Shown here: positions 674 to 51,648 of the stretch, in pieces
Numbering within the stretch: the stretch's first letter is position 1
How the letters are laid out: every line of letters starts with the position of its first letter
Translations under genes and position numbers: made by a program
Notes under the pieces: model-generated
Told to the model about the DNA's origin: nothing
Database searches by the model: none
What the model saw: only the letters and a program-made list of their open reading frames with translations
Source: a bacterium
GTDB taxonomy: Bacteria > UBA8248
Length of the DNA: 64,000 nt
NCBI GenBank assembly: GCA_965202625.1
Contig: CBDBBI010000010.1
Span: 2,560,001 to 2,624,000 of the forward strand
Direction: 5' to 3'

Positions 674-783
674 GCGCGCGGTCAAGTTGCGCGCCAGCCC
701 CTTGAGAAATCCGCCTGAATGCTCAACAATGGCGCAAAATTTCCATTCTCATGGTTTTCACGCGACCGACTGGGGGGACTCTC

Positions 784-2739
<1,956 letters not shown>

Positions 2740-2765: not shown

Positions 2766-2873
2766 CGTCATTCCGGCGAAAGCCGCAAACCATGAGGGGC
2801 GAGAAATATACGGCCCCTGGATTCCGGCCCGTCGCCCAGGCGTCGCGGAATCCGCTCTTGCACTGGAATGACG
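2766..2873. repeat. REP-like palindromic element
   Basis: Terminal inverted repeat CGTCATTCC (2766-2774) / GGAATGACG (2865-2873) with internal GGCGAAAGCC and CTGGATTCCGGC, resembling widespread GTCATTCC..GGAATC..GATTCC..GGAATGAC extragenic palindromes. Confidence 0.65.
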
Positions 2874-3089
2874 ACCCGCCAGAGCGTGAAGGAGAACGGC
2901 TGGCCCTCGCCCGCGTTGAAAAAGAGGGGATAGCGGCTCGGTAGCCGGAATGGGCGATGCAGGCGAATTATGGGACGGCCTCGTCGCTCTTTTGCAGGTC
3001 GCTGCTCTTGATCGGAAAGACGTGCGCATCATCCTATGCGCTACTTCTGCCCAACTCCCCAAAGGATGGGATTTACTGGAGGTTTGAAA

Positions 3090-3536
3090 ATGACGGGAAA
3101 AACACGCAGAAAAAAAACGCAGCTTGGCAGGAAAATCGGAGGAATCCTCGCTAAAATAGACATGAAGCGAGAAGACCTCGAGAGCGGCGCCGGAATAACA
3201 AAGTATAAGATGGGAAAAATCATGTTTGAGAAGAGATATGACAGGATCGCTCTCGAACGTCTTATGTCCTTCCTGGATGGACATTTCACGGACGAGGAGA
3301 AATCTCTTTTTATGGAGGGCGCTAGTTCTTCAGTGAACAGGAAATACCGCATTATTGAATTCAGGGTTAAAACAGATTCCTGGGAAGAGAAGGTGTTGAA
3401 TACCTTTAACGCATACCTCACATCTGAAGTAGAAAAGGAAGGATACGGCAAAAGGAGCCTGTATTTGCTTTTGCAGTTGATCGGAGACAGGGTGAGCGAT
3501 GGACGTCCCGAAGCAAATGTGACATCGGTTAAGTGA
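3090..3536 (+). CDS. small HTH-like protein, phage-like; paralog of 7820-8254 and of 3803-3928
   Basis: GGAGG RBS; basic N-terminus followed by REDLESGAGITKYKMGKIM, a helix-turn-helix-like pattern; aligns by eye with two other copies in the island. Confidence 0.6.
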   Translation: MTGKTRRKKTQLGRKIGGILAKIDMKREDLESGAGITKYKMGKIMFEKRYDRIALERLMSFLDGHFTDEEKSLFMEGASSSVNRKYRIIEFRVKTDSWEEKVLNTFNAYLTSEVEKEGYGKRSLYLLLQLIGDRVSDGRPEANVTSVK

Positions 3537-4114
3537 ATCTGCATCCGTTCCAAAACGACATAGTGGAGAATGTGTCGAGGAGCTTTCGTTCGGTCAGATC
3601 GGTTTGCATTGTTTTGCCTACGGGTGCGGGCAAGACCATCATCGCCGGTGAAATATCCCGTCGCATATTTCGGCAGATGCAGGGACAAAAGGGCGTTGTC
3701 TGCCTTTACCTCGTCCACCGACAGGAGCTTTTATGGCAGACGGTGCGCACGCTGAAACAATTTGGACTTGACCGATATGTCGGCATTGTCGCCGCTGGAC
3801 AGCACGTAATTCGCCAAATGGTGTATGACGATCGCTACTCCCCCGACGTGCTCGACAAACTTGTCGCCGCCTTTCCGACGTTTTTTGACGAGGAAAACAT
3901 CCATCGTTTTCGCGCAAAAGCACAATCCGGAGAGGCGTCGCAGCCTGGGCTTCTTGATAAGATGTGGGATTTGATGGGATATGTGGGCGGATGGGCAGCA
4001 TGTGCCCGGAAACCCGGTATTTTCAAACCATCCTCTGGTCCGCCCGATACAACAGATCAACAAGAATTCACCGATGCAACAGATGAAGAATTAAAAGAGT
4101 TGATGGCATATTAG
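3533..4114 (+). pseudogene. chimeric ORF: N-terminal fragment of a DEAD/DEAH (ResIII-like) helicase fused to an HTH-family fragment
   Basis: LHPFQ Q-motif, LPTGAGKT Walker A, LVHRQELLWQ motif Ia, but no DExH; after about aa 90 the sequence matches the island HTH-like family. Confidence 0.6.
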
Positions 4115-4179
4115 GAAGATATTGATGACGTTTCCGCTTCTCCGCCACCAGATCCAGAAGAAGAGGAGCTGTCTGGGTG

Positions 4180-5274
4180 ATGCGTCTGGAAGAAACCTTG
4201 AAAAAGGCGGTCGCTCTCATTCGCTCCGGCGTGCTGAACAACGAGGCGGGAGTCAAACTGTCGGTGATTTTGCCGATTCTGCGCGCCCTGGATTGGGAAG
4301 ACGATAATCCAGACGAAATCAGGCCGGATGTTTCCATCGCCGGCGGCAAGGTGGACTATCTATTGCTCCGCAGGCATGGCGAACCGCTGGCTTTCATGAA
4401 AATCAGACGTTCTGGCTCTATGGACGCTGCGGATGAGAAGTATTTGTTCGCATATGCCTCCAAAAATAAGATTCCGTTCGTCATTTTGACGGACGGCAAC
4501 CTGTGGGATTTTTATCTCAGCACGGCGAACGGCACCCTCTCCGAGCGCCGATTCTACCGAGCGGAATTGAAGCGCGAGGAAAGGATTTCCGAATACGTAG
4601 AGTCTCTGGAGATATTTCTTTTCCGGAGTCGCGTTGTCTCAGGCGAAGCGAGGCGCGCGGCGGAGCAACGGCTCAGGGAACGCTGGGGCGACGCGATGCT
4701 GCGCGCCTGGCGGAAGCTGGTGGACGCTTCAAATCGGGCGCGTGGAGAGAGGCTTCGCAACCTGCTTACGGAAGAGGTGGAGGACGAATGCGGAACGAGG
4801 CCGCACCCGGACGATGTAAAGAAGTTTTTGAAGGGGCTTATTCCCGATGTCCCGCCACCTCCTCCGCCACCCCCACCCCCGCCGAAACTTGGTGAGTTGA
4901 GGCTGATTGAAAAGAACTCCAAAATTATCGGCTTCATTCTGGACGGCAAGCGCGTGGAAACGGGCGTTGGTAGTCGAACCCTGGCCGAAGTGATAAAAAA
5001 GTTCGCCCGCCGCGATTCTGGTTTTATGGAGCGCTTCGCCGCTCAAACGGTGAGCAAAAGCAAGCAAGGGGATGGGACTCCAATACAACGATTGGTGGCG
5101 CGGAATCGCCAGGACATTAACGTCAGGCCCGATTTGGCGGTGAAACACTCCCGAGACTTGGAAAATGGATGGTGGCTGGGGACTTGTCGCAACATGAGCC
5201 AAATACGAAACTACATCAAAATCGCTTGCGAGATCGCGGGCGTGAAGTTCAGCGCGCAGTTTGAAGCTGATTGA
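4180..5274 (+). CDS. type I restriction HsdR N-terminal-like protein with polyproline linker and SeqA-like C-terminal domain; nuclease motif degenerate
   Basis: EAGVK..ILPILRALDW, VDY, ILTDGNLWDFY; the E-x-K position reads MKIR; P10 linker; C-terminal RLVAR..GWWLGT. Confidence 0.7.
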   Translation: MRLEETLKKAVALIRSGVLNNEAGVKLSVILPILRALDWEDDNPDEIRPDVSIAGGKVDYLLLRRHGEPLAFMKIRRSGSMDAADEKYLFAYASKNKIPFVILTDGNLWDFYLSTANGTLSERRFYRAELKREERISEYVESLEIFLFRSRVVSGEARRAAEQRLRERWGDAMLRAWRKLVDASNRARGERLRNLLTEEVEDECGTRPHPDDVKKFLKGLIPDVPPPPPPPPPPPKLGELRLIEKNSKIIGFILDGKRVETGVGSRTLAEVIKKFARRDSGFMERFAAQTVSKSKQGDGTPIQRLVARNRQDINVRPDLAVKHSRDLENGWWLGTCRNMSQIRNYIKIACEIAGVKFSAQFEAD

Positions 5275-5349
5275 AATTTGACGCGCGCCTAGGGGAGGGC
5301 AGCGAACCTTTCACGTTTTCACGCTCTTTTGTCGAGGAGGTATCTGCGG

Positions 5350-7794
5350 ATGTGTCTGGAAGAAACCTTGAAAAAGGCGGCCGAGCATTTCCATCCTGAT
5401 ATGATGGAAGCGCAAGTCAAGCAGGCAGTTGTCCTGCCGATTCTGCGCGCCCTGGATTGGGACGATTCTGACCCGGCCGAGTTCGTGCCGGAGTTTTCTG
5501 TGAGTGAGGGCTACGTAGATTACGCGCTGCTTTGCGCGCCGGATGGTCCGCTGGTTTTCATCGAAGCCAAAAGACCCGGTGGGGTGGATGTAAAGGCTGA
5601 GGAACAGCTGTTTCGATATGCGAACAACAAGGGCGTCCCCCTCCTTATTTTGACGGATGGCGACGCTTGGGATTTTTACCTCAGCATGGCGGTCGGCGAA
5701 CCCGCCAATAGACAGTTCTGCAGAGTGGAGTTGACGCGCGAGGAGAGGATTCCCGAATACGCCAAATTTTTTGAAGTATATCTACGAAAAAGCAACGTCG
5801 CTTCCGGTGAAGCCAAGCGCACTGCGGAGGAAAAACACAAAAACAATAAGGACAAGACGAAAGCGCACAGGGCCATTCCGGGCGTTTGGAGAGAACTCCT
5901 GGAGACTCCGGATGGGAAGCTGTGCGATTTGCTCACCGAAGAGGTGGAGAGCGCCTGCGGAACCAAGCCGCACGCAGACGATGTAAAGCAGTTTTTGAAG
6001 GGGCTTATTCCTGATAAGCCTCCGCCGCAGACCCCGACCTTAAAGAACTCCAATAGGAGATCTCGAGACATTCAGAGCTGTGGAGCCGCAAAAAAGCCGA
6101 AAGAGATAATCCATTTTGAACCCATGTCGGAAACCGAGCATTTTCGCGTCCTTGGATTGCCCGACTCTACAAATGTGGCGATACAAATCAAGGCAACGCA
6201 CGAAATACAGGTCATCCCGCGAGACACGATCCAGCAGGAAGGCAATCTGATCACCATTGCACCGCTGCAATGGTGGATCGAGCAGGCGGGAGGGCAGGGA
6301 TTCGGAAAAAAGGGGATAAGACTGGCTTTTGCAGACTCGATCATTCGCGCGGCAGAAAAAAAGGGAAGCATCAACGTTTCGGAAAGAATCAGGGCGCGCG
6401 GTGCAGCCGTATCGCCAAAAGGCGTCACCTATAACGTTGGCGATGGAGTTCTGGTTGCCGGGCCCGATGGGCGGCTGTCGGATAAAAAGCTGTTCTCGGA
6501 TATGGATGACGAGTACCTGTATGTGCCTGGCCCCAAAATTAAACTCAAGGAGGACGTGCGCGCCGAGCGATGGTGCAAAGAGCTCTATGACGCCGTGATG
6601 GCTTACAGGTGGAACGAAGCGATAGACGGTCGAGCGTTTATGGGATGGATCGTGTCCAGCATAGTGGGAGGCGCACTGGATTTCAGGCCTATGGGGTGGC
6701 TGATAGCCCCCGCATCTACAGGCAAGACTTTCCTTTTGGAAAAGGTATTGACCACAACGCTGGAACATATGGTTTCCGCTTTTGCAAACGCCACGGAAGC
6801 GGCGCTTCGCGCTGTGATGAAATCGGATTCCCTGCCCTGCTATTTCGATGAATTTGAACCGCATGAAGGCGAGGGGCAGAAGTGGGGAAAGATATTGAAC
6901 CTCATTCGGTTGGCTTCTGGCGGAACAGACGCTCATATCAGAGGCACTGCGTCAAACAAGCAGGCTATTATGCACCGTCCACGTTTTTCGATGCTTGTGG
7001 CGAGCAGGATGATGCCGAACCCCTCCACTACTGACGGTTCACATTTTTTCACCATGCGTTTATCGGAAGAGCCTGTAGTGGATTGGCCAAAGGTGCGAGA
7101 TTCCATCCTTGCCGCCACCACTCCTGAAAAGACGATAGCCATCCGAACGCACGTCATACGCAACACTCCATCTATTCTTGCAAGCGTGAACCGAATACTG
7201 GACGACATGTCCCGCGTATTTGGCAAGAAGATGGACATGAGGTTATCCATGATGACTGCGGCGCTCACGGCAGGGGCAGGCTTCATGGGAGGCGATTACA
7301 AGCCATATGTCCTGCGCGATGAGAATAATCCCAACGACACCTACTCCGTCCTCTCCACGCTGCTTACGTCGCTTGTGTACGTCCCTGGCGAGGAAGGCAT
7401 AACGCTGGCCGAGGTGCTGAGGGTGGCGTATTTCACGGAGGATGGGACGTTCATGCCGACTGGAGCGAACCAGATGATGTTGGGCATTGCGAGCCGTCAT
7501 GGTTTTCGCATGGACGGCCCGGAAAGGATGTTTGTAGCGGGCAACCTTGAACCGCAAAACGCGATCATCCAGAGAACGAAATACAGGCATATCGGACTGC
7601 AAGATTATTTTAAGCGGCTGCCTGGCGCAAAGCTCATAAGGGACAAAGACGGATCGTCTATGCGCCTTCGTTTTGGTGGAATGCGCAGGGTCGCCTACGA
7701 ACTTGGCCCAGAAGCCCTTGAAGAGGCGGGATTCACGCCTTCAAAGGGAAGGATAGGAGATGACGACACCATGCCAGTGTATATGCAAAGGTAG
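5350..7794 (+). CDS. HsdR-N-like PD-(D/E)XK nuclease fused to a phage primase/helicase-type P-loop ATPase
   Basis: PEF..VDYAL..FIEAK..EQL..ILTDG; later IAPLQWW, GALDFRP, APASTGKT (Walker A), ATEAALR, CYFDEFE (Walker B). Confidence 0.75.
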   Translation: MCLEETLKKAAEHFHPDMMEAQVKQAVVLPILRALDWDDSDPAEFVPEFSVSEGYVDYALLCAPDGPLVFIEAKRPGGVDVKAEEQLFRYANNKGVPLLILTDGDAWDFYLSMAVGEPANRQFCRVELTREERIPEYAKFFEVYLRKSNVASGEAKRTAEEKHKNNKDKTKAHRAIPGVWRELLETPDGKLCDLLTEEVESACGTKPHADDVKQFLKGLIPDKPPPQTPTLKNSNRRSRDIQSCGAAKKPKEIIHFEPMSETEHFRVLGLPDSTNVAIQIKATHEIQVIPRDTIQQEGNLITIAPLQWWIEQAGGQGFGKKGIRLAFADSIIRAAEKKGSINVSERIRARGAAVSPKGVTYNVGDGVLVAGPDGRLSDKKLFSDMDDEYLYVPGPKIKLKEDVRAERWCKELYDAVMAYRWNEAIDGRAFMGWIVSSIVGGALDFRPMGWLIAPASTGKTFLLEKVLTTTLEHMVSAFANATEAALRAVMKSDSLPCYFDEFEPHEGEGQKWGKILNLIRLASGGTDAHIRGTASNKQAIMHRPRFSMLVASRMMPNPSTTDGSHFFTMRLSEEPVVDWPKVRDSILAATTPEKTIAIRTHVIRNTPSILASVNRILDDMSRVFGKKMDMRLSMMTAALTAGAGFMGGDYKPYVLRDENNPNDTYSVLSTLLTSLVYVPGEEGITLAEVLRVAYFTEDGTFMPTGANQMMLGIASRHGFRMDGPERMFVAGNLEPQNAIIQRTKYRHIGLQDYFKRLPGAKLIRDKDGSSMRLRFGGMRRVAYELGPEALEEAGFTPSKGRIGDDDTMPVYMQR

Positions 7795-7819
7795 AAGAAG
7801 GAAGGGGGCGAGGTCCATT

Positions 7820-8254
7820 TTATAGTGTTTGCTCTTCCTGTTCTGTTTCTAGTGTTTCATCTTTTGCGGCCAAGCGCCAATCTTGCAAATGGGCTATCAA
7901 ATCCTTGAACATATTGTTATCTTTACGTTTCTGTTTCAAGGTTTTCTGCAATTCATCTAGCATTTTTTCTTCAAATGAACCCCGCCTCACCGTAAAACGA
8001 AAATGCCGCCATGAGTTGTGCGATTGTGCGGTTTCGCGAAAATGTTCCTTATCTTTGTCGTCAAAGTATGCAGGGAACAGTTCAAATATCTTTTCAAGCG
8101 CAGACGGATTCTAACTGTCACTGAAAAGCATTTGACCTAGTTGATATCGCGTTAGTCCAGTTGCGCGAAGCATCTCCCCTCGCAATATATTCATGTCCAC
8201 GGCGGCATTCATAATTTTTTTGCCCAGTGTTGTGTATTTCCTTTTTTCCGTTGC
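7820..8254 (-). pseudogene. interrupted paralog of the 3090-3536 HTH-like protein
   Basis: Manual translation KRKYTTLGKKIMNAAVDMNILRGEMLRATGLTRYQLGQMLFSDS*NPSALEKIFELFPAYFDDKDKEHFRETAQS...; in-frame TAG at 8111-8113 where paralogs have Tyr; not in the ORF track. Confidence 0.7.
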
Positions 8255-8399
8255 TTATCCGGTATGTCAAATCTCCAATGTAGCCAAACAAAAATCATTG
8301 CGAAACGCTTGGGGGAAAGGATGTTTTTTCGTGCGTAAACGGCCCGTGAAAAGGCGTTGCAAAAAAAGCCGTTCAAGGCAGGTCGTCGAGCGTGCTGGG

Positions 8400-8428: not shown

Positions 8429-10144
8429 TCAGTCCGCCTTCCCCAGCATCTCCCGCGCGTGCTGGCGCGCCGCGTCCGTAATCGCAAGCCCCGCTCCCAT
8501 GCGGGCGATCTCCTCCACCCGCTCCTCATCCGCCAGAGCGTGAATCGTCGTGGCGGTGCGGTCGTTCACGACCCGCTTCTCCGCCCGAAAATGGCGATCC
8601 CCCAGGCTGGCCACCTGCGGCAGGTGAGTGACCACGAGCACCTGATGGTTTTCCGACACCGCCTTGAGTTTTCTTCCCACAACCTCGGCTGCGGCCCCGC
8701 CGACGCCGGCGTCCACCTCGTCGAAGATGAGCGTGGGGATGAGGTCTGCGCGTCCCAGGACGGATTCGAGGGCGAGCATGAGCCGGGAGAGCTCCCCGCC
8801 CGAGGCGACGCGGCGCAAGGGACGCGGGGGTTCGCCCGGATTCGGGGAGAAATGAAACTCCGCGCGGTCAACGCCGTCGGCGCGAAGCGCGACCGTTTTC
8901 TGATCGCGCCGGATGAAGCCCGCCGCCGTCTCCTGGTGCGTGATGCGCGTCTGAAACGCAGCCCCCGCCAGCCCCAGCTCGTCCAACCCTCTCTCCACTC
9001 CCGCATCGAGCCCTCTGGACGCCTCTTCTCTTATTCTGGAGAGGCAGAGGGCGATTCGCGCGATCTTCTTTTGCAGCCCGTCGCGCTCCTCCGCAAGGCG
9101 CGCTTCGGTTCCCGCTTCGTCCGCAACCTCCTCGAGGTCGTTTCGGCGCCTCTCCAAAAAGGCGAGACATTCCGCCTCGTCGCTCCCGTATTTCCTGATC
9201 ATCTCTCGAATGAAGGCGCGTCTCGCCTCGAGGGACTCCAGGCGTTCGGGGTCGTCGGCTATCCCCGCCGCGTAGTCTCGAAGCGCGTCCGCCAGGTTTT
9301 CCAGCTGCGCCTGGGCGGAGGCGGCCTCATCCAGAAGCGGACGCAGGGATGCGTCTAGACGGACCATGCCTTCGAGTTCCCTGCGGATTTCGCCCGTTTT
9401 CTCGACGACCGCACCCTCCGCTCCATACAGCCGCTCGTAGAGCGATGCGGCGACCCCTCCCAGAAACTCTGCGTTTTTCAGTTTGGGCAGCTCACCCTCA
9501 ATCTCCGCCAGCTCGCCGGGACGCAGGCGGGCGCTTTCCAGCTCCTCCACCTGGAAGCGCAACAGGTCGGCTCTCTGGGCGCGCTCCCGGACGCCCTCCT
9601 TGTGCGCGCGGAGTTTTTCCTCGACCGCGTGAAGCGCCCTCGCCAACGGGCCCAGGGAGTCTCTTTGCGCGCGCGTCCGCGCGAAGTCGTCCAGCAGTTC
9701 CAGATGGGTGGCGGGGCGAAGGAGGCTCTGGTGCGCGTGCTGGCCATGGACGTTCACCAGACGCTCGCCCACGGCGCAGAGCAAGGACGTCGGCCCCATC
9801 GCGCCGTTCAGATACACCCGGCTTCTGCCGTTCTTGGCGACCCGGCGCCGCACGATGAGCTCGCCCCCATCCGGAACGTCCACGCCCGCCTCGCCGAGCA
9901 GGGCGCGCGCCGCGAGACCGCCTGCGGCGTCCGGTATCTCGAAGGCGGCCTCGACGATGGCCCCGGCCGCGCCCGCGCGCACCATGTCGCTTCGCGCGCG
10001 TGCGCCCAGAGTGAGGCCCAGGGCGTCGAAGACGATGGACTTGCCCGCGCCCGTCTCCCCCGTCAGGACGTTGAGCCCCGGCCCGAAGGCGACCTCGAGA
10101 TCGTCGATGATGGCGAAGTTCGCGATTCTCAGAACGCGGAGCAT
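8429..10144 (-). CDS. recN: DNA repair protein RecN
   Basis: LTGETGAGKS, VHGQH, ASGGELSR, IFDEVDAGVGG, VTHLPQVA. Confidence 0.97.
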   Translation of the reverse strand: MLRVLRIANFAIIDDLEVAFGPGLNVLTGETGAGKSIVFDALGLTLGARARSDMVRAGAAGAIVEAAFEIPDAAGGLAARALLGEAGVDVPDGGELIVRRRVAKNGRSRVYLNGAMGPTSLLCAVGERLVNVHGQHAHQSLLRPATHLELLDDFARTRAQRDSLGPLARALHAVEEKLRAHKEGVRERAQRADLLRFQVEELESARLRPGELAEIEGELPKLKNAEFLGGVAASLYERLYGAEGAVVEKTGEIRRELEGMVRLDASLRPLLDEAASAQAQLENLADALRDYAAGIADDPERLESLEARRAFIREMIRKYGSDEAECLAFLERRRNDLEEVADEAGTEARLAEERDGLQKKIARIALCLSRIREEASRGLDAGVERGLDELGLAGAAFQTRITHQETAAGFIRRDQKTVALRADGVDRAEFHFSPNPGEPPRPLRRVASGGELSRLMLALESVLGRADLIPTLIFDEVDAGVGGAAAEVVGRKLKAVSENHQVLVVTHLPQVASLGDRHFRAEKRVVNDRTATTIHALADEERVEEIARMGAGLAITDAARQHAREMLGKAD

Positions 10145-16003: not shown

Positions 16004-17314
16004 ATGGCCGGTTGCGGCAGACGAGTCGTGATCACCGGATACGGAGCGATGACGCCCCTGGGCGCGGGCGTCACCACCACGTTCGACTCCATGCGAGAGG
16101 GGCGCTCCGGAATTGACGTCATCCGACGTTTCGATCCCGAAAAACTTCCCTGCCAGATCGCCGGAGAGATAGAAGACGAGTGGATCGCCTCCCAGGAAAA
16201 CGTCGAGGGGCGCAGACTCGATAAGTTTTCTACGCGCGGAGTGCGCATGATGCGCGTCGCCGTCTCGCAGGCCGCCAGGGCGGCGCGCCTTGATGAGGTG
16301 TCTCAGAGAAGACGGGTTGGCGTCGCGCTCGGCTCCCACGGCGAGCACCCCCAGATCGAGGATTTGCTGCGCGTTTTCCCCTATTGGAAGCCCGAGGAGG
16401 GGGCGCCCTCAGGGGGCGGGTGGGACGTTGAGGCGCTCAGGCGTCGCGGCGCCTATGACTTCATGGGGTTTTTTAGAAGAAAATCGGATGTGGCGACCTC
16501 GGTAGTCGCGCTGGATTTCGACTGCCGGGGGCCGATGGTATCCATCTGTTCGGCCTGCGCGGCGGGGGCGCAGGCGATTGGCGAGTCCGTGCGTCTCATT
16601 CGGGACGGAAGGGCTGACGTCATGGTGGCGGGCGGCTGCGAGGCGACCATCACCTACGTCGGGTTTCTCGGGTTCGTCTTACTCACTGCGCTGGCGGAGA
16701 GATACGAGACCCCGCAGACCGCGTCTCGTCCCTTTGACAGGAAGCGAAACGGCTTCGTGATGTCCGAGGGGGCGGGGGCGATGATACTCGAGCGCTACGA
16801 GCACGCGCGCGCGCGCCGCGCCGACATTCTGGGCGAAGTGCTCGGCTATGGCGATTCCTCGGACGCGTTTCGCATCACCGACATGCACCCGAAGGGGCTG
16901 GGGGCGGTATTCGCCATGAAAAGAGCGCTGGCCGACGCGGGCGTCGCGCCCGAGTGCGTCGAATACGTCAACGCGCACGGCACCTCCACGCCAAAGAACG
17001 ACACGACGGAGACCAAGGCCATCAAGGAGGTGTTCGGCGCCCACGCGGAGAAGGTGCCGATCAGTTCCAATAAGTCCATGATCGGACACACCATTGGCGC
17101 GGCCGGTGCCGTCGAGGCGATTTTGACCCTGGAGGGAATGCGCCGCTCCGAAATCCTGCCCACCATCAACTATCGAAACCGCGATCCGAAGTGCGACCTA
17201 GACTACGTGCCCAATGAAACTAGGGCGCAGGCCCACCGCGTAGCCCTCTCCAATAGCTTTGGCTTTGGAGGGCAGAACGCCTGCCTGTGCCTGGGCGGCC
17301 CCGAGATCGCGTGA
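16004..17314 (+). CDS. beta-ketoacyl-ACP synthase (FabF-like, catalytic Cys present)
   Basis: SACAAG, NAHGTST, KSMIGH, SNSFGFGG. Confidence 0.92.
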   Translation: MAGCGRRVVITGYGAMTPLGAGVTTTFDSMREGRSGIDVIRRFDPEKLPCQIAGEIEDEWIASQENVEGRRLDKFSTRGVRMMRVAVSQAARAARLDEVSQRRRVGVALGSHGEHPQIEDLLRVFPYWKPEEGAPSGGGWDVEALRRRGAYDFMGFFRRKSDVATSVVALDFDCRGPMVSICSACAAGAQAIGESVRLIRDGRADVMVAGGCEATITYVGFLGFVLLTALAERYETPQTASRPFDRKRNGFVMSEGAGAMILERYEHARARRADILGEVLGYGDSSDAFRITDMHPKGLGAVFAMKRALADAGVAPECVEYVNAHGTSTPKNDTTETKAIKEVFGAHAEKVPISSNKSMIGHTIGAAGAVEAILTLEGMRRSEILPTINYRNRDPKCDLDYVPNETRAQAHRVALSNSFGFGGQNACLCLGGPEIA

Positions 17315-18495
17315 GATCTTCCCCCCTTCCCATCACCGGAGCGGGTCTGGTGACGGCGGCGGGAATCGGCGTCGCGCCCGCCTGGGAGGCGCTTTGCGCG
17401 CGCCGCTCCTTTTTGGTACTTGACCCGGACTCAGAGCTCGCCGGCTTCGCGCCGATAAGAACGGCGAGATGCGGGCGGATAGACCCGGAATCCCTCGGTG
17501 CGGATCGCCGGGCGGCCAAGCTCATGCGCGGTCATACCCACATGCTTCTGGCGGCGGTTCACGACGCGCTCAGGGACGCTCCCCTCGCTCCGGAGATGGC
17601 GGGGGCGGAGGTCGCCTTTTTCGCCGGCATGGATTCGGTCGATCCGGCGAGCGATGATTTGATGGGGGCGGTTCATAAATCAGGGGCTGAAGTGAATCTC
17701 AGGCGTTTTTTTGGCGAGGAGATGGATCGCATTCCTCCGCTTTGGCCGCTCGAGCTGTTGAACGCGATAGGTTTCAGCCAGGTGGCGATTCAACATCAAC
17801 TTCAAGGGGAGAACGCTGTTTTCAGCGCGGGTCCAGAGGCGGGCGCGCGCGCCATCTGCGAGGCGGCGGCGTCCGTTCGTTTGGGCAAGGCGAGGCTTGG
17901 GTTGGCCGCCGGAGTGAGTGGACGGATTTCCGCTCGAATGCTCGCCCGCGCGGCGATGTCCGGCGCGTTGCCCGGTGCTTGGGGGCTGGGCGAGGGTGCG
18001 GCGGTGGTGCTTTTCGGGGAGACTGTGCAACCGGAGGGAATACGCGGGTGGCTCAAGGGGCAGGCTTCGGTTCGCGCGCTTGCTAGAAGAGGGGGCCTCG
18101 CCCGGGCGATTCAAAGATCGGCCGAGACCGCGCTGTCGCTCGCTGGCCTGAGACCTGATGAGGTGGACCTTCTGGTGATTTGCGGGGAGGGGCGCGCCGA
18201 GGCGGATAGGGCGGAGGCGGAGGCGCTCTCCGCCATTTTCAAGGCGGGCAGACCTCTCCTGCTTGCCACGAAGGGCGTATTCGGCCACCTTTGGGGGGCG
18301 AGCCCGGCGCTGGACCTCATCATCGCGGCGAAGGCGTTGGCGGAGGGGGAGGTGCCCCCGCCTCACGGAATCGCGGATGAGGCGTTTCAGGGCGTAGAGC
18401 GAACGTCTGGTCGGCGCGAGATGCGAGACGCGCTCCTCCTTCTTCAGGGCTTCGGCGGCGTATGTGCGGCTTTTGTGGTGGGGAAAAACCCTTGA
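17311..18495 (+). CDS. ketosynthase-like protein lacking catalytic residues (chain-length-factor-like)
   Basis: ITGAGLVT, GEGAA, KGVFGHLWGAS; Cys site reads SAGPEAG; GTGA overlap with upstream KS. Confidence 0.8.
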   Translation: MRSSPLPITGAGLVTAAGIGVAPAWEALCARRSFLVLDPDSELAGFAPIRTARCGRIDPESLGADRRAAKLMRGHTHMLLAAVHDALRDAPLAPEMAGAEVAFFAGMDSVDPASDDLMGAVHKSGAEVNLRRFFGEEMDRIPPLWPLELLNAIGFSQVAIQHQLQGENAVFSAGPEAGARAICEAAASVRLGKARLGLAAGVSGRISARMLARAAMSGALPGAWGLGEGAAVVLFGETVQPEGIRGWLKGQASVRALARRGGLARAIQRSAETALSLAGLRPDEVDLLVICGEGRAEADRAEAEALSAIFKAGRPLLLATKGVFGHLWGASPALDLIIAAKALAEGEVPPPHGIADEAFQGVERTSGRREMRDALLLLQGFGGVCAAFVVGKNP

Positions 18496-18510
18496 CGGGG
18501 GAATGGCGGA

Positions 18511-18963
18511 TTGCGTTTTCTCTTGTTCGATCAAATCCAGGAGGCGGTGCGCGGGGAGCGTATTCTGGGCCTCAAGACGTTTCCTTTGTCCGAAATCTAT
18601 CTGAACGCGCATTTTAGGCGCGCGCCCCGGATTCCCGGATCCATTCTGATAGAGGCGATGGCGCAGATTGCGGGTTGGCTCGTAGTCTATACGTATGATT
18701 TCAGGACCTCGTGCGTCATCTCGCTCATCAATGGCGTGGAGGTGGCGAGCGACCTGCGTCCGGGAGTTTCTTTGGAGATTCATGGGGAGATGATTGATAC
18801 GAACGAGCGGGCGAGCCTGTGCCGCGCGCGGGTCGAGAAAGACGGTGTCGTGTTGGCCAGGGTGGAGCGATTCGTGTATCCCCACTTTCCCAACGATGAT
18901 CCCAAGTCGCTGAAAGAGCGATTCAGGCGCTACGGATGGTTGGGGTTCGAGGCGGGTTCATGA
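18511..18963 (+). CDS. FabZ/FabA-like 3-hydroxyacyl-ACP dehydratase
   Basis: FLLFD, HF..PRIPGSILIEAMAQ hot-dog motif. Confidence 0.85.
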   Translation: MRFLLFDQIQEAVRGERILGLKTFPLSEIYLNAHFRRAPRIPGSILIEAMAQIAGWLVVYTYDFRTSCVISLINGVEVASDLRPGVSLEIHGEMIDTNERASLCRARVEKDGVVLARVERFVYPHFPNDDPKSLKERFRRYGWLGFEAGS

Positions 18964-20225
18964 GCACCCAGACGCTCGTCACCGGTCTCGGCATGGTGAC
19001 CTCTCTTGGGGCGGACGTTGAAACTTCATGGCGAGGGGCATTGGCTGGCGAGTCGGGTTTAAGGCCGATTGCGTCCTTCGACGCGAGCGCGCTGCCCATC
19101 GCCGGGGCGGGCGAGGTTTCTGAGGAGGCGATGCGCCTCATCAGGGAGAGATTGCCTGAGGAATACGCGGGTGAGGGGGAGCGCAGGACGCTGTTCGCGC
19201 TTGACGCTGTGCGCGGCGCGATGGAGGACGCCGGTCTGCGTGTCGGGGATTATGCTCCCGAACGCGCCGGCGTGGTGATGGGGACCGGTCTGAGCACTTA
19301 TCGATTGGAGGATTTCTGCGCTTGGGCGGACCCTGAAAATGGGTTTGACGCTGCGCGTTTTGCAAAGGAATTCCACAGGACGCAAGATTCAGGTTACTTC
19401 AAGAATCCGCCCGAGCGCGCGACGTCCCGAATTGCCGAATGGTTTGACCTCGCCGGTCCCAGCGCTACTATCACCTCCGCCTGTGCGGCGGCGGCGCAGG
19501 CGATAGGCCTTGGAATGCGTATGATTCGCCGGGGAGAGGCGGACGTGATTCTTTGCGGCGGGGCTGACTCGATGATCCATCCTATCGGGATGGCTATATT
19601 CCTTCTGCTGGGTGCCGCCTCGAAATCGCGGGTCCCGATTTGCCGCCCATTTGACAGGAAACGCTCTGGCCTTGCTGTTGGCGAGGGGGCGGGCGTCGTC
19701 GTCCTGGAATCTGCGGCGCACGCGCGCGCGCGCGGTGCGGCGCCTTATGCCATTCTTTCAGGTTATGGCGCGAGCATGGACGCCCACCAGGTCACGGCTC
19801 CGCATCCGGCGGGCCGCGGCGCCGCTCGATCGATGAGCGAGGCGTTGAAGGATGCGGGCTCCGCTCCCCACGATATCGCCTACGTCAACGCGCACGGCAC
19901 GGGCACGAAGCTCAACGATCCGGCCGAGACCCGGGCGATTCGCGAGGTTTTTGGGGCGCGGGCGGATGCGCTAGCCGTGAGTTCTTCCAAGTCCATGATC
20001 GGGCACCTGATCGCCGCGTGCGGCGCGCCTGAGTTCATCTTTACGACCTTGAGCGTGGCGCGCGATATGGTGCATCCTACGAGGGATTTGGAGAATCCGG
20101 ATCCGAAGTGCGATCTCGACTATGTGTCTGAGGGAGCGAGAAACATGCCTGTTCCGGCCGCCATGACGAACTCCTTTGGCTTCGGCGGGCAAAACGCCAC
20201 TCTCCTCATCAGAAAGGCGGCTTAG
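18960..20225 (+). CDS. beta-ketoacyl-ACP synthase (FabF-like, catalytic Cys present)
   Basis: SACAAA, NAHGTGT, KSMIGH, TNSFGFGG. Confidence 0.92.
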   Translation: MSTQTLVTGLGMVTSLGADVETSWRGALAGESGLRPIASFDASALPIAGAGEVSEEAMRLIRERLPEEYAGEGERRTLFALDAVRGAMEDAGLRVGDYAPERAGVVMGTGLSTYRLEDFCAWADPENGFDAARFAKEFHRTQDSGYFKNPPERATSRIAEWFDLAGPSATITSACAAAAQAIGLGMRMIRRGEADVILCGGADSMIHPIGMAIFLLLGAASKSRVPICRPFDRKRSGLAVGEGAGVVVLESAAHARARGAAPYAILSGYGASMDAHQVTAPHPAGRGAARSMSEALKDAGSAPHDIAYVNAHGTGTKLNDPAETRAIREVFGARADALAVSSSKSMIGHLIAACGAPEFIFTTLSVARDMVHPTRDLENPDPKCDLDYVSEGARNMPVPAAMTNSFGFGGQNATLLIRKAA

Positions 20226-20978
20226 ATGAAGATTGACTTGAGTGGAAAAATTGCGCTGGTGACAGGAGGCGGCCGGGGCATCGGTCGCGCCTGCTGTGTG
20301 GGCCTTGCCGAGGCGGGAGCGTCCGTGGCGATCAACTACAGCCGCTCGGCGGAGGCCGCCGAGGAAGTGAGAGGAGAGATCGAAGCGGCGGGCGGCGAGG
20401 CGCGCGCCTACCGGGCCGACGTCTCCTCCTTTGACGCGGTGGGGGAGATGTTCGAGAAGGTGAAGGCGGATTTCGGCACGCTCGACATTCTGGTGAACAA
20501 CGCGGGCGTGGTTCACGATGCCTTGCTGCTCACGATGAAACCCGCCGGCTGGCGCAAGGTGATCGGCGTAAGTTTGGACGGCACCTATCACTGCACGAAA
20601 CTCGCCGGCGAGATCATGCTCAGGAAACGTTCTGGCAAGGTGATCACCATCTCCTCGGTCATGGCGATCTCGGGCGGGGGCGGCCAGACGAACTACGCCT
20701 CCGCCAAGGCGGGGCTGGTCGCCTTCACGCGCGCCTGCGCCGCCGAGATGGGAAAGCGCGGGATACAGTTCAACGCCGTCTTGCCGGGGATGATCGTCAC
20801 CGACATGAGCGAACGTGTGCGCGAGAAAGCGGGAGAGGCGATTCTGGCGCGCATTCCGGCGGGCCGCTTCGGCACGCCTGCGGACGTGGCCAGGCTCGTA
20901 TTGTTCTTGGCGTCTTCGGAATCGGATTACATCAATGGCCAGGCGATAGCCGTGGACGGCGGCATGCTCACTGGATGA
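20226..20978 (+). CDS. fabG: 3-oxoacyl-ACP reductase (FabG-like)
   Basis: TGGGRGIG, NNAG, NYASAK, PGMIVTDM. Confidence 0.9.
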   Translation: MKIDLSGKIALVTGGGRGIGRACCVGLAEAGASVAINYSRSAEAAEEVRGEIEAAGGEARAYRADVSSFDAVGEMFEKVKADFGTLDILVNNAGVVHDALLLTMKPAGWRKVIGVSLDGTYHCTKLAGEIMLRKRSGKVITISSVMAISGGGGQTNYASAKAGLVAFTRACAAEMGKRGIQFNAVLPGMIVTDMSERVREKAGEAILARIPAGRFGTPADVARLVLFLASSESDYINGQAIAVDGGMLTG

Positions 20979-20996
20979 GGACGGGGGTTTTGGCGA

Positions 20997-21413
20997 ATGC
21001 GCCTGTATCAGGGGGTGGATTTGGTAGAGGTGGCGCGCTTGCGAAAAGCCTGTGAGCGTCACGATGCGTTTCAGGAGGACGTATTCACTGAAGCCGAGCG
21101 CACCTATTGCGAGAAGCACCGAAATCCTTATCCCCATTTCGCCGCCCGCTTCGCGGCGAAAGAAGCCTGTCTCAAAGCCTTCGGCGTTGGTCTGTCAGGG
21201 CCTGACGGCCTGGGCGGAAGAGGTCGCCTGCGCGAGATCGAGGTGGAATCGGCGGCGTCGGGCAAGCCTGCGCTGCGGCTGCACGGCTCAATGGAGCGCA
21301 TGCGCGTGCGAAAGAGGATCACCCAGTCCACCATTTCGATGAGCCATACTTTGGAGCTAGCTATGGCGCAGGTCATTCTCGTGGGAGATGGCGCGCCGGA
21401 GGGGTTGCGCTAG
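20997..21413 (+). CDS. acpS: holo-ACP synthase
   Basis: GVDLVEV, FAARFAAKEA.KA.G, SMSH. Confidence 0.92.
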   Translation: MRLYQGVDLVEVARLRKACERHDAFQEDVFTEAERTYCEKHRNPYPHFAARFAAKEACLKAFGVGLSGPDGLGGRGRLREIEVESAASGKPALRLHGSMERMRVRKRITQSTISMSHTLELAMAQVILVGDGAPEGLR

Positions 21414-21468
21414 AGGTGGTTTCGGCAACCCCGCCGCGCGAGGGGTGAGTGGGTCGGAGGAATCATTT

Positions 21469-21921
21469 TTGAGATATATGTTGGTGGACAGGGTGGCGGA
21501 GTGGAAGGCGGGAGAATCCATCCAGGGGGTGAAGAACATCACCATGAGCGAGGATTTTTTAGAGTTTCATTTTCCGCGGTTTCCCGTCATGCCGGGCGCG
21601 CTGATATTCGAGGGGTTGGTCCAGCTCGCTGGCTGGCTCGAGGCGGCCAGCTCGGATTTCACGAAATGGGTTCTTTTGGAGAGGGCCCGCAGTGTGAAAT
21701 ACTATGGATTCGCCTTTCCCGGAGATCAGGTTCTCCTGAGAGTGGAAGCGTGCGCGGAGGAGGGGGGATGGAAGGACTTCAAGGGTATGGCCGCCGTGGA
21801 GGGAGAGCGTCGGGTGGCCGTTGAGTTTAGCGGAAAGCTGGTGGCCCTCGCGGATTACGAGGACCCTGAGGAGCAACGCCATCACTTCCGCGTTCTCAGC
21901 CGAGAGATTCGGCTGGGTTAG
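21469..21921 (+). CDS. second FabZ-like dehydratase (start approximate)
   Basis: LVDRV, KNITMSE, HFPRFPVMPG..E, PGDQ. Confidence 0.85.
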   Translation: MRYMLVDRVAEWKAGESIQGVKNITMSEDFLEFHFPRFPVMPGALIFEGLVQLAGWLEAASSDFTKWVLLERARSVKYYGFAFPGDQVLLRVEACAEEGGWKDFKGMAAVEGERRVAVEFSGKLVALADYEDPEEQRHHFRVLSREIRLG

Positions 21922-21933
21922 GCGGAATGCGCG

Positions 21934-23232
21934 ATGGAAGGCAGAGAGGTTTGGATCACGGGGGTGGGGCTGCTCACCTCTCTGGGCGCGAGCGTGTCGG
22001 AGAACTGGAAGGCACTTTGCGCCGGCAGAAGCGGTGTCGCCTGTCATCGGGACGGAGAGTGCGCGTCCTTGCCGAATCATCTCTCCTATCACGGCAGGGT
22101 CGCCGGCTATGAAGACCCACCCGAGGTGCCGTCCGGGCTCGCGAGCCAGCGTAAATTCTTGAACAGAAGCTCCATCCTCGGGCTTCATGCGGCCAGGGAG
22201 GCGGCCTCTTGCGCTGGCCTCGATATGGGCGAGATTGCCCCGGAGCGAAAAGCCCTCTACGTGGGCTCCGGTGATTTCACGAAGATGGGCTATGAGGATT
22301 TCTACGCTCCCTTGAAGGAGACGGCCGGCGAAGCATGGAACTTTCCAAAAACGGAGGACCTCAACCAAGCGGTGCTCCACGGAGTGAGCCCCTTTTTTTT
22401 ACTCGAGGGCCTGTCCAACAATCTTTTTAGCTATCTCTCGGCCATTTATAAGTCCATGGGGCCAAACGGCAGTTTCTCTAGTCTCTCCTCTTGCGGGGCG
22501 CAGGCACTGGAAAACTGTGAGCGCGTGGTGCGCTCCGGAGAGGCCGACGTTGGTTTGGTCGTGGGCTGCGGGAGCTGGGCGCATCCTATGATGCTTTTGG
22601 AACTCGACGGTCTGGGCGTTCTCTCTCAGGCGAAGGAGGGTGCTGCGTCGTTTCGGCCGTTTGATAGGAGGCGCGATGGATTCTTCCCCGGCGAGGGGGG
22701 GGCCGCTCTGGTGATGGAGGCGGCCGAACGCGCCCGGGCGCGAGGCGCGCAACCCTTGGGCCGCGTCGTTGGAACGGCGAATTGTCAGGAATTCTCGCGG
22801 GAGCGTCACATTCCCGTTCCCAAGGGAGCGGTGGGCTTCTCCGTGGAATCCGCTATGGCTGAGGCGGGTCTTGGCCCTGACGCGCTTGCTTTCGTCCTTC
22901 TCCACGGAAGCGGGACGCCGAGAGGGGACGCGGGCGAGTTGTCCGCCTTGCTGGAATACCGGGACAAGGCGGAGACTTTGTGTCCTCTCGCCGGTTGGAA
23001 GCCCTACACGGGGCACATGGGTTCGGCCAGTGATTTGGGAGAAATCATTCTGGGGTTGTCCGCCCTGAGAGAGGGCCGTCTTCCTCCCACGCCGGGCCTT
23101 GAGCGCAAAGACGATGCTTTCGCCGCTCTTTGTATTCCTGATGAGGAGTGCTCCGTCGTCGGAAGCGCGTTTTTGTCCTTGAGCCACGGCATCGGCGGGC
23201 AATCCTCCGCTACCGTCGTCGTAGCGCGGTGA
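21934..23232 (+). CDS. ketosynthase-like protein, catalytic Cys position apparently Ser (CLF-like)
   Basis: WITGVG, RPFDRRRDG..GEG, LHGSGT, YTGH, HGIGG; active-site loop SLSSCGAQA versus canonical SACAAGAQA. Confidence 0.8.
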   Translation: MEGREVWITGVGLLTSLGASVSENWKALCAGRSGVACHRDGECASLPNHLSYHGRVAGYEDPPEVPSGLASQRKFLNRSSILGLHAAREAASCAGLDMGEIAPERKALYVGSGDFTKMGYEDFYAPLKETAGEAWNFPKTEDLNQAVLHGVSPFFLLEGLSNNLFSYLSAIYKSMGPNGSFSSLSSCGAQALENCERVVRSGEADVGLVVGCGSWAHPMMLLELDGLGVLSQAKEGAASFRPFDRRRDGFFPGEGGAALVMEAAERARARGAQPLGRVVGTANCQEFSRERHIPVPKGAVGFSVESAMAEAGLGPDALAFVLLHGSGTPRGDAGELSALLEYRDKAETLCPLAGWKPYTGHMGSASDLGEIILGLSALREGRLPPTPGLERKDDAFAALCIPDEECSVVGSAFLSLSHGIGGQSSATVVVAR

Positions 23233-24212
23233 ATAAGTCCACAAGGCGAAACAAGAGAAAGCGCAGCAAGGACAAGAGCGCGTTTCACCAGTGGGTGGAG
23301 TACGCCTTGGCCATCTCGCTGCTGAAACTGATTCGTCTGCTGCCTTATAGGGTTTGCCGAGCGATTTCCGTCGTAGGGGGAGAGATGATTTTTCGCCTCA
23401 TCCCGAGAAGAAGACGCATCGCGCGCGCCAATCTGCGCCTGGCGTTTCCCGATCTCGGCGAGGCGGAGCGTCTGATCCTGGCGAGGCGCAGTTGCCGTTC
23501 GTTCGTCCTCACGTGTCTGGAAGGAGCGAAATTTTTCGCCCGTTTCGAGCCGGAGCGGGCCAGAGCGATGCTGACAAATGCCGTCGACGGGGCGGAGGAA
23601 ATTTTGAAAAAAGTACGCGCTGCTCATGAAGGCGCACGCGGGTGCGTCTTCGTCACGCCGCATCTGGGAAACTGGGAATGCCTCGTCCATGCGGGCGCGC
23701 TGGCGGGCGTCCCGCTAACCATTCCCGTGAGGTCCCTGGACAATCGAAGGCTGGAGAGCGCGCTGCGCAAGATGCGCGCGGCTTCCGGACACGAGATCAT
23801 CTCTAAGAGGAACGCTTTTTTTCATCTGCGAGAGGCACTCCGCAAGGGCCGCTCGGTGGCGATTCTGGCGGATCAGAACGCGGGCGCAGAGGGAATCGCC
23901 GCGCCGTTTTTCGGCGAGCCGGCCAGTACGACGCCCGCCCCCGCCGCACTCGCGATTCTTTACGACCGCCCCATCGTTTTGGTCGCGTGTCTGAGAGGGG
24001 AAGGCGATGGCCGGCGCTACGAAGCCTTTTTGAGCGAGCCGATAACGCCCGACGTGGGCGCGCGAAGCGCGAAGGAGGAGATCGCAAGGCTCACGACGGC
24101 GGTGAACGAGGAGATGGAAAGCATGATTCGCAAAGGACCGGACCAGTATCTATGGCTTCATGATAGATGGAAGATCGCCAAGGGTGGCGGGCCGGCTCAC
24201 GAGGCGGGCTGA
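23229..24212 (+). CDS. LpxL/HtrB-family (lipid A late) acyltransferase
   Basis: NLRLAFP, HLGNWE, LADQ, PFFG, PDQYLWLHDRWK; GTGA overlap with upstream KS-like gene. Confidence 0.9.
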   Translation: MNKSTRRNKRKRSKDKSAFHQWVEYALAISLLKLIRLLPYRVCRAISVVGGEMIFRLIPRRRRIARANLRLAFPDLGEAERLILARRSCRSFVLTCLEGAKFFARFEPERARAMLTNAVDGAEEILKKVRAAHEGARGCVFVTPHLGNWECLVHAGALAGVPLTIPVRSLDNRRLESALRKMRAASGHEIISKRNAFFHLREALRKGRSVAILADQNAGAEGIAAPFFGEPASTTPAPAALAILYDRPIVLVACLRGEGDGRRYEAFLSEPITPDVGARSAKEEIARLTTAVNEEMESMIRKGPDQYLWLHDRWKIAKGGGPAHEAG

Positions 24213-51637: not shown

Positions 51638-51648
51638 ATTTTCGCTTC

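Follow-up and report, generated by a model that had tools for sequence, protein, structure and literature searches.

A tandem pair of genes with a common nuclease head

Two adjacent genes with a shared beginning and different ends lie near the left end of a 64,000-nucleotide (nt) stretch of bacterial DNA (hereafter the window; GTDB lineage UBA8248, GenBank assembly GCA_965202625.1, contig CBDBBI010000010.1, positions 2,560,001 to 2,624,000). Gene 1 occupies 4180-5274 on the plus strand (364 codons, or 365 if counted from 4177), and gene 2 occupies 5350-7794 on the same strand (814 codons). Both open reading frames (ORFs) are present as an initial annotation had described them, when it proposed the pair as a candidate undescribed defence module. 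A gap of 75 nt separates the genes, and each is preceded by a strong Shine-Dalgarno sequence. For gene 2 the start is placed at ATG 5350, which has GAGGAGG 8 nt upstream and is the point from which the homologues run; a TTG at 5329 is also in an open frame.

The two products align by BLASTP over residues 2-231 of gene 1 and 1-229 of gene 2, with 115 of 235 positions identical (49%, E 1e-67). Nothing significant is found past this shared part, and the C-termini are therefore unrelated. At the DNA level 442 of 678 positions are identical (65%), and the longest identical runs measure 28, 27 and 22 nt. These runs are the three blocks quoted in the initial annotation, whose picture of a common N-terminal part followed by unrelated C-termini is borne out. 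A run of at least 28 nt arose in 3 of 2000 trials with shuffled codon columns, 65 of the 111 conserved degenerate codons are identical between the genes, and the identical runs are clustered. Recent duplication or gene conversion was considered as the source of the blocks and is not established: the 28-mer also occurs exactly at an unrelated locus (L024, one of 57 public loci taken from species-representative genomes) in a metagenome-assembled genome (MAG), while the 27-mer occurs exactly in none of the 57. The blocks thus mark the most conserved peptides, and a recent duplication is not needed to account for them.

The shared part is a restriction-type nuclease head, and its catalytic residues differ between the two genes. 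Gene 2 carries D57 (in VDY), E72-x-K74 (in FIEAKR) and Q86-xxx-Y90 (in EEQLFRY). Gene 1 keeps VDY, whereas FMKIRR (4393-4410, plus strand) replaces the E-x-K motif that reads [IV]E[AS]K[RG] in the family, with E changed to K and K to R, and EKYLFAYA (4435-4458, plus strand) replaces the family EEQxFxYA, with the Q of Q-xxx-Y changed to Y. The loss of the motif in gene 1 and its retention in gene 2, which had been pointed out from the beginning, are thus both confirmed. The Pfam model HSDR_N (PF04313, cut-off 25.1 bits) follows the same division, with gene 2 passing at 29.5 bits and gene 1 falling below at 17 bits. In an AlphaFold 2 model of gene 1, the head (pLDDT ~90) resembles the nuclease domains of DrdV (7lo5/7lvv), HsdR (3h1t) and BpuSI (3s1s), together with 9y1l, at Foldseek probabilities of 0.92-1.00, and the sole match of a whole-family profile among PDB sequences is HsdR 3h1t (E 0.0034). 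Sequence comparison therefore supports an assignment of both genes as paralogues with an HsdR_N-type PD-(D/E)XK head, the head of gene 1 being predicted as catalytically dead and that of gene 2 as intact.

To place these motifs in the family, heads were scored wherever a tblastn high-scoring segment pair (HSP) of at least 180 amino acids was obtained from the 57 loci and the window, which gave 68 heads after 6 shorter HSPs of 74 were dropped. The residues D/E/K/Q/Y/D are kept at the six motif columns in 65 of the 68. Three heads depart from this pattern: gene 1 (D K R Y Y D), a head at 3794-4480 of locus L008 (D K K E Y N), and a head of L036 that differs only by Y to C. Dead heads are accordingly limited to two of the 68, gene 1 and L008:3794-4480.

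Gene 1 and its putative reader domain

A word-indexed search with gene 1 returned 261 full-length matches, and those listed are 350-400 amino acids long with 98-99% coverage and 40-54% identity. Nearly all of these homologues carry PF04313, and where they are named at all the name is 'hypothetical protein'; protein-atlas look-ups likewise gave only 'hypothetical protein / HSDR_N' clusters. By its similarities, gene 1 thus falls within a large and still unnamed group of proteins of ~365 amino acids, and is not a special invention of this locus.

The gene 1 model, built from a 30-row alignment with a mean pLDDT of 84.3, consists of an alpha/beta head, a helical stalk (residues ~130-220), a proline-rich linker predicted to be disordered (residues 226-243, positions 4852-4905 of the plus strand, pLDDT <50) and a compact C-terminal domain (4924-5259, plus strand). 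The fold of this last domain resembles the C-terminal domain of SeqA. Foldseek aligned it with 1lrr_A (TMt 0.60, root-mean-square deviation (rmsd) 2.3 Å, 94 columns), 3sk7_A (TMt 0.55) and 3fmt_A (rmsd 2.1 Å). Pfam SeqA (PF03925) was matched at E<=0.1 by 5 of 30 family members, the best at E 6.9e-5. A profile of 40 C-terminal domains, searched against PDB sequences, had SeqA as each of its five best matches, collinear over the domain. On these three routes, which agree and are each weak, the C-terminus of gene 1 is plausibly a SeqA-like DNA-binding module. The reader domain that the initial annotation had suspected in gene 1 is to this extent plausible; the protein that carries it is an aberrant member of a family whose heads are otherwise almost all canonical. 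Other family members carry different modules on the same head: HARE-HTH in P0246, Mrr_N in the protein of L051, SAP in that of L043 and DUF3489 in P0164. The family is therefore best described as a nuclease head with exchangeable DNA-binding tails.

Constraint on gene 1 was gauged through counts of conserved columns and a simulation of neutral drift, because the nearest homologues share only ~50% identity, a distance at which saturation of the synonymous sites would spoil a ratio of nonsynonymous to synonymous substitution rates. Of 57 conserved head columns, gene 1 is altered at 14 and gene 2 at 1, against a family median of 2. In the C-terminal domain 6 of 19 conserved columns are altered in gene 1, where the family median is 0 and the maximum 9. 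Gene 1 is, as judged from these columns, fast-evolving in both domains and not in its active site alone. Simulated drift to an amino-acid divergence of 15% left the gene 1 frame intact in 20 of 400 runs, drift to 25% in 3 of 400 and drift to 33% in 1 of 400. Since the frame so rarely survives simulated drift, some selection has acted to keep it open over most of the divergence of gene 1. The initial annotation had named relaxed selection on gene 1 as an observation that would count against its proposal, and the accelerated change agrees with this in part: the conserved columns have changed well beyond the family norm and the frame has stayed open. A scan for promoters and terminators gave no promoter-like site, and 2 terminator-like ones within gene 1, which is below the counts in shuffled sequence and uninformative.

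Gene 2 joins an intact head to a superfamily 3 helicase body

Gene 2 begins with a head and helical stalk (residues 1-235; 5350-6054, plus strand) that carry all the canonical residues and are up to 69% identical to family members. Past the same proline-rich point as in gene 1, the protein switches to helicase homology. This helicase body (residues ~261-800; 6130-7749, plus strand) matches PHROG 35358 'DNA primase' at E 1e-37 over profile positions 444-921 of 968, and its further matches lie in 23 phage and 9 plasmid records, where most of the genes concerned bear the annotation DNA primase/helicase. Over two thirds of its length gene 2 is 36-46% identical to the proteins P0005-7, whose N-termini are zf-CHC2 domains, with Toprim also detected in P0006. 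The body contains a Walker A motif, APASTGKT (residues 453-460; 6706-6729, plus strand), and a Walker B region, CYFDEFE (6838-6858, plus strand; FDEFE at residues 499-503). Its model has a pLDDT of 75-92 and is matched by Foldseek to SCCmec Cch (5dgk_A, E 1.1e-8) and to the African swine fever virus PrimPol, vaccinia D5/monkeypox virus (MPXV) E5, NrS-1 and SaPIbov1 Rep at E ~1e-8 to 1e-7. Protein-atlas look-ups added sub-threshold viral, DUF927 and superfamily 3 (SF3) leads.

No match to zf-CHC2, Toprim or archaeo-eukaryotic primase domains was obtained in gene 2, and the relatives P0005-8 have a primase where gene 2 has its nuclease head. Given the homology of the body and the position of the head, gene 2 is a primase-helicase in which a nuclease head of the restriction type has taken the place of the primase. 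Pfam ResIII, DEAD and Helicase_C matches are found in neither gene. An ATPase in gene 2 had been correctly recognized in the initial annotation; its role as a translocating motor of the restriction type does not hold, as the domain is instead the SF3 helicase body of phage and plasmid primase-helicases. Gene 2 is of a rare kind: a word-indexed search with it returned 7 other matches, none bearing the head of this family, and no other form of ~800 amino acids was among the 'longer' matches.

An exhaustive search with the 235-residue head of gene 2 gave 3835 cluster representatives at E<=1e-3, 254 of them at E<=1e-30. Inspection of the best 150 of the 3835 revealed a second protein with the architecture of gene 2, P0185 (812 amino acids), which is identical to the product of L030:11437-13872, from the MAG of a gammaproteobacterium. 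Two canonical paralogues of 371 and 374 amino acids precede it there on the same strand; the surroundings consist of housekeeping genes, and upstream lie genes for a DUF4143 ATPase and a DUF3800 protein. The two fused proteins do not descend from one fusion. In a tree of the helicase parts gene 2 groups with zf-CHC2 proteins (support 100/100) and P0185 with Toprim-type proteins; forcing a single origin costs 151 log-likelihood units and is rejected by the approximately unbiased (AU) test (p 3.2e-32). In the head tree each fused head is closest to its own neighbouring genes. A nuclease head therefore took the place of a primase at least twice, on both occasions next to resident members of the family, and this speaks for selection acting on the combination.

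Distribution, arrays and synteny of the family

Among species-representative genomes, the carriers of the family (57 loci) are nearly all MAGs of uncultured bacteria, from about ten phyla. The head tree intermixes these phyla, which suggests horizontal spread. In several of the MAGs the taxon name alludes to sponges (Poriferisodalis, Poriferihabitaceae). Two temperate Streptococcus phages, Javan316 and IPP25 (H25/H26), also encode remote relatives of the head, at 29% identity over 84% of the query and ~2 kb from one genome end; one of the two is annotated 'type I restriction enzyme related protein'. Across the 57 loci no conserved partner gene was found, and the commonest neighbour cluster (7 of 57) reflects the synteny of one lineage, not a system.

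Tandem arrays of 2-4 heads are present at 8 of the 57 loci (L008, L013, L024, L030, L042, L043, L046 and L056). Four of these (L042, L043, L046, L056), all in Actinomycetota MAGs, are arrays of 2-4 head genes with C-termini other than SeqA-like ones (one is SAP-like), interspersed with DUF4143/AAA_14 ATPase and HNH/DUF222 genes, and their heads form a separate, well-supported clade.

The chromosomal site of the pair is itself a recurrent home of the family. A family gene lies in the same interval between thiE-acs and recN-nadK at L006, L007, L008, L014, L023, L031 and L053. All seven are MAGs, two of them titled Nitrospinota, with acs 89-92% and recN 74-75% identical to those of the window. 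In the six syntenic loci measured, the family gene lies ~10 points of guanine-plus-cytosine (GC) content below its flanks. In all seven the family gene is present and the helicase is absent from the site. The dead head of L008 belongs to this group: L008:3794-4480 is an intact head-only ORF of 229 codons with the motifs FIKVKR, EDELF and TNG, directly upstream of a live canonical copy at L008:4477-5604. At 9 conserved columns both dead heads deviate, against an expectation of 4.2 (p 0.002), and at two of these the substituted residue is identical (E72K and G95K). Trees place gene 1 either as sister to the gene 2 head (support 50/84) or to the L008 dead copy, and a single dead clade is not rejected (AU p 0.475). 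Orthology of the two dead heads is not upheld, as the trees do not settle the placement and the shared substitutions may be parallel. The exact combination of gene 1 and gene 2 was seen only in this assembly among the sequences searched, an outcome that the initial annotation would have counted against its proposal; related combinations do recur, in L030 as two canonical copies with a fused copy and in L008 as a dead head with a live canonical copy.

The islet and its surroundings

The pair lies in a low-GC islet (~2800-8300, GC 0.42-0.56) between acs (751-2739, plus strand, GC 0.64) on its left and recN (8429-10144, minus strand, GC 0.68) on its right, and it completes a run of four ORFs on the same strand. 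The run is headed by a 148-codon ORF, P0004 (3090-3536, plus strand, GC 0.447), which is weakly similar to helix-turn-helix (HTH) repressors (Pfam HTH_26 E 0.071, PHROG repressor E 0.097, both below significance). Its stop overlaps the start of the next ORF (GTGA), which has 193 codons (3533-4114, plus strand) and the look of a helicase fragment: its first ~90 residues correspond only to the N-terminal, Walker A part of ResIII/DEAD helicases (Pfam ResIII E 5e-12, profile 3-91 of 164; PHROG 16 DNA helicase, positions 272-351 of 986). A pseudogene on the minus strand (7823-8260), with an in-frame TAG and without a clear start, marks the right border of the islet and is a paralogue of P0004 (tblastn 31% over 99 amino acids, E 1.4e-11; BLASTP 35% over 51 amino acids, E 3e-7). 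Apart from the pair, the islet with its helicase fragment and its two inverted HTH-like ORFs, one of them broken, looks like the debris of an element. No integrase is present in the islet, no tRNA gene in the 64-kb window and no credible attachment repeat. A perfect direct repeat of 15 nt, CCGCCAGAGCGTGAA (2876-2890 and 8530-8544), was considered as an integration scar and rejected, because its right copy lies within recN and the match fails to extend; it is probably due to chance.

The remark in the initial annotation that no hsdM or hsdS is adjacent holds over a wider range, as neither was found among the ORFs scanned with Pfam from position 50 to 30.8 kb. The only DNA methylase genes are distant, with two N6_N4 methylases (PF01555) at 50.8 and 59.9 kb. 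At 50759-52413, ~43 kb from the gene pair, the first (E 9.5e-62) is directly followed by a gene for a DUF6996/DUF6997 protein, and the two may be a type II restriction-modification pair. The second (59947-60900, minus strand, E 1.1e-19) is apparently solitary. Elsewhere in the window we noted a fatty-acid/polyketide-like lipid cluster (16004-24209) with ketoacyl synthases, FabA-like dehydratases, short-chain reductases, a phosphopantetheinyl transferase and a lipid A-type acyltransferase, a large Lhr-type helicase of 1443 amino acids (53226-57554) with DEAD, DEAD_assoc and Lhr winged-helix domains, and a protein with a RelA_SpoT domain (58237-59301).

Possible functions of the pair

There are several possible explanations for the pair. 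The one that we favour, and hold at about an even chance, is that these proteins are modular stand-alone nucleases of the restriction type, in which the head cuts DNA that the C-terminal module has chosen, with gene 2 as a ring-helicase variant and gene 1 as a non-cutting, fast-evolving paralogue. The relationships in sequence and fold, the motifs, the distribution, the synteny and the repeated origin of the fusion are established above; beyond them we infer for the family a nuclease activity, a targeting to DNA or to its methylation state, and a role in defence, possibly with some cooperation of the two proteins. The proteins are built of four parts: the PD-(D/E)XK head, the helical stalk, a flexible linker rich in proline and, at the C-terminus, an exchangeable module predicted to target DNA. 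This module would place the protein on particular DNA, possibly DNA of a given methylation state, and the head would then cut. By analogy, such a scheme of targeting followed by cutting would be that of stand-alone modification-dependent or type IV-like enzymes, which work without a methylase partner. In gene 2 a small reader would have been exchanged for the whole helicase body of a primase-helicase, so that the protein may load on DNA as an ATP-dependent SF3 ring bearing live heads. Gene 1 would most likely be a non-cutting DNA-binding paralogue, serving either as a modulator or competitor or persisting as a copy under relaxed selection, and is not proven to be an obligate subunit. The gene pair, an unusual combination, probably acts against foreign DNA.

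Several observations weigh against this reading. The functions proposed are deduced from homology and predicted folds. The E-values of the Foldseek matches to the head are weak (4e-3 to 4e-2). The SeqA matches in relatives fall under the Pfam cut-off (P0032, 19.8 against 25.5 bits), the sequence of gene 1 itself gives none, and the matches of the C-terminal domain profile to SeqA in PDB reach only E 0.21-0.47. The rapid change in both domains of gene 1 would also fit decay. Neither gene significantly matches any system model of PADLOC-DB 2.0.0, as could be expected of the undescribed module that had been proposed: gene 1 has no match at all, gene 2 has only MTase_II at E 0.0086, and a weak match of REase_I, confined to the head, is seen in 5 of 30 family members (best E 1.9e-5). 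Walker A and B are degenerate in P0185, and ATP-driven action is therefore not constant across the architecture. Only two fused proteins were seen among the best 150 of the 3835 representatives, and the word-based search for longer forms had missed P0185. Finally, the helicase body has its relatives among the replication proteins of mobile elements, and element-like debris lies in the islet, which together make a replication role, or a remnant of one, a real alternative.

One alternative is the heteromer that the initial annotation had in mind, in which the dead gene 1 is an obligate partner that senses DNA or its methylation through the SeqA-like domain, and the live gene 2 supplies cutting and ATP-driven movement. 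We regard this as unlikely. The arrangement of the genes on one strand, with a short gap, strong Shine-Dalgarno sequences and a common head and stalk that may pair, would suit it, as would the open frame of gene 1. Dead heads are rare, each of the two lies upstream in a tandem pair within the acs-recN interval, their shared deviating columns and the tree test would allow one dead clade, and L030 also has a fused copy beside canonical ones. These parallels do not form a consistent set of partners, however: the dead copy of L008 is without a reader domain, the SeqA-type copies of L030 are live, and there it is the ATPase of the fused copy that is degenerate. No dead head occurs in the arrays of L013, L024, L042, L043, L046 and L056 among the HSPs scored, the split second copy of L056 being unscored. 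The candidate sensor is itself degraded at conserved positions, the trees do not distinguish between the gene 2 head and the L008 dead copy as sister of gene 1, and the deviating columns shared by the two dead heads are concentrated near the inactivated catalytic site, which is what a parallel loss of constraint would produce. Prediction of a complex between residues 1-225 of gene 2 and residues 1-225 of gene 1, each with its own alignment, gave scores of 0.28 and 0.22 against a mark of 0.32 and is uninformative either way.

A second alternative, which we also consider improbable, takes the pair as a remnant of a mobile element without any function in defence. Gene 2 would be a present or former replication initiator-helicase whose primase was swapped for the head by recombination with a resident family gene, and gene 1 the drifting resident; by analogy with Rep proteins that join an HUH endonuclease to an SF3 helicase, the head might nick an origin. 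Such a history is suggested by the closeness of the helicase body to the primase-helicases found in phages and small plasmids and to the folds of Cch and SaPI Rep, and by the gene 2 head, which is nearest to the gene 1 head and the syntenic resident genes. The low GC, the helicase fragment and the two inverted HTH-like paralogues of the islet point the same way, and the related genomes hold the family gene with no helicase at the site. Set against this are the missing integrase, tRNA genes and attachment repeats, the intact 814-codon frame with all nuclease and ATPase motifs present, and the same fusion made independently in L030 among housekeeping genes, which is hard to explain by accident.

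A more speculative hypothesis, which we would give a rather low probability, takes the heads of the family to be aimed by whichever DNA-targeting module they carry. Twice, independently, a host may have taken over the helicase body from the primase-helicase of an invader as such a module. The resulting nuclease would be directed against the origins or replication forks of phages or plasmids of the same class, as an immunity made out of the replication protein of the invader. The dead SeqA-like paralogue could then temper or gate the nuclease, for example by occupying host DNA of a given methylation state. The loss of the ATPase motifs in P0185 would fit a pure targeting role of this kind.

Least likely of all, and in our view very improbable, is that the pair consists of functionless leftovers, a decaying paralogue next to an accidental in-frame chimera: gene 1 has lost three catalytic residues and is altered at about a quarter of the conserved columns, the neighbours are a gene fragment and a pseudogene, and the exact pair was found nowhere else in the word-indexed searches, but both long frames are open where simulated drift leaves at most 3 of 400 open at 25% divergence or more, gene 2 deviates at a single conserved head column and has both Walker motifs in place, model confidence is high (pLDDT 84 in gene 1 and 75-92 in the helicase body of gene 2) and the architecture recurs independently.

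If the favoured reading of modular stand-alone nucleases is true, the 3835 head representatives, spread over at least ten phyla of mostly uncultured bacteria, would constitute a large unnamed family of lone restriction-type nucleases with a SeqA-fold reader. The replacement of a primase by a nuclease head on two occasions would link nucleases of the defence type with replication helicases. The locus would also offer a natural pair of dead and live paralogues, with a second such pair occupying the corresponding site of a related genome, in which one could study whether inactivated nucleases persist as regulators. Were the pair a mere remnant, its value would be one of annotation only.

Comparison with known systems

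HsdR (PF04313/PF13588; PDB 3h1t, 2w00) has the same type of PD-(D/E)XK head, with the D...ExK...QxxxY motifs, and in gene 2 the head precedes an NTPase as it does in HsdR. Unlike HsdR, the pair has neither an SF2 motor (ResIII/Helicase_C) nor HsdM and HsdS; the NTPase of gene 2 is an unrelated SF3 helicase, and gene 1 has no NTPase.

The helicase body of gene 2 is homologous to that of the zf-CHC2/Toprim primase-helicases of phages and other mobile elements, with Walker A and B intact, and it shares its fold with vaccinia D5/MPXV E5, NrS-1, SCCmec Cch and SaPIbov1 Rep. It differs from these in that the primase (zf-CHC2 and Toprim, ~300 amino acids) is absent and a nuclease head stands in its place, and in that the gene lies on the chromosome and has none of the genes of an element close by. 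A nuclease placed N-terminal to an SF3 helicase in one chain is known from the HUH endonuclease-SF3 helicase Rep proteins of single-stranded DNA viruses and plasmids, to which the layout of gene 2 may be likened by analogy. Its nuclease, in contrast, is PD-(D/E)XK and not HUH, and no origin or rolling-circle element was identified. A fusion of PD-(D/E)XK with an SF3 helicase was not found described in the literature covered, which leaves out subscription journals, and the same holds for a nuclease composed of HsdR_N and a SeqA-like domain, and for a SeqA-fold reader in restriction enzymes.

The C-terminal domain of SeqA (PF03925; PDB 1lrr, 1iu3, 3fmt, 3sk7) binds hemimethylated GATC. The C-terminal domain of the family resembles it in fold (TMt 0.46-0.60, rmsd 2.1-2.7 Å) and through weak collinear matches that include G-R-x-R and W-[WV]-x-x-T-N. 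Unlike SeqA, the family has no SeqA N-terminal oligomerisation domain and carries the domain fused to a nuclease; the similarity lies under family cut-offs, and several conserved positions are altered in gene 1.

A parallel in overall design may be drawn with type IV and IIM enzymes (Mrr, DpnI-like winged-helix fusions, and PUA, SRA or EVE fusions), which likewise combine nuclease and reader in a single chain without a methylase partner. PMC6765204 and PMC12191111 present a nuclease with a separate sensor or reader as a general principle of modification-dependent enzymes, and a dependence on modification is suggested for the present family only by analogy. The family departs from type IV and IIM enzymes in its order, with the head first and the reader last, and in the SeqA-like fold of its usual reader. 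Its likeness to stand-alone modification-dependent enzymes extends to the modules themselves, as Mrr_N and HARE-HTH sit on the same head in relatives.

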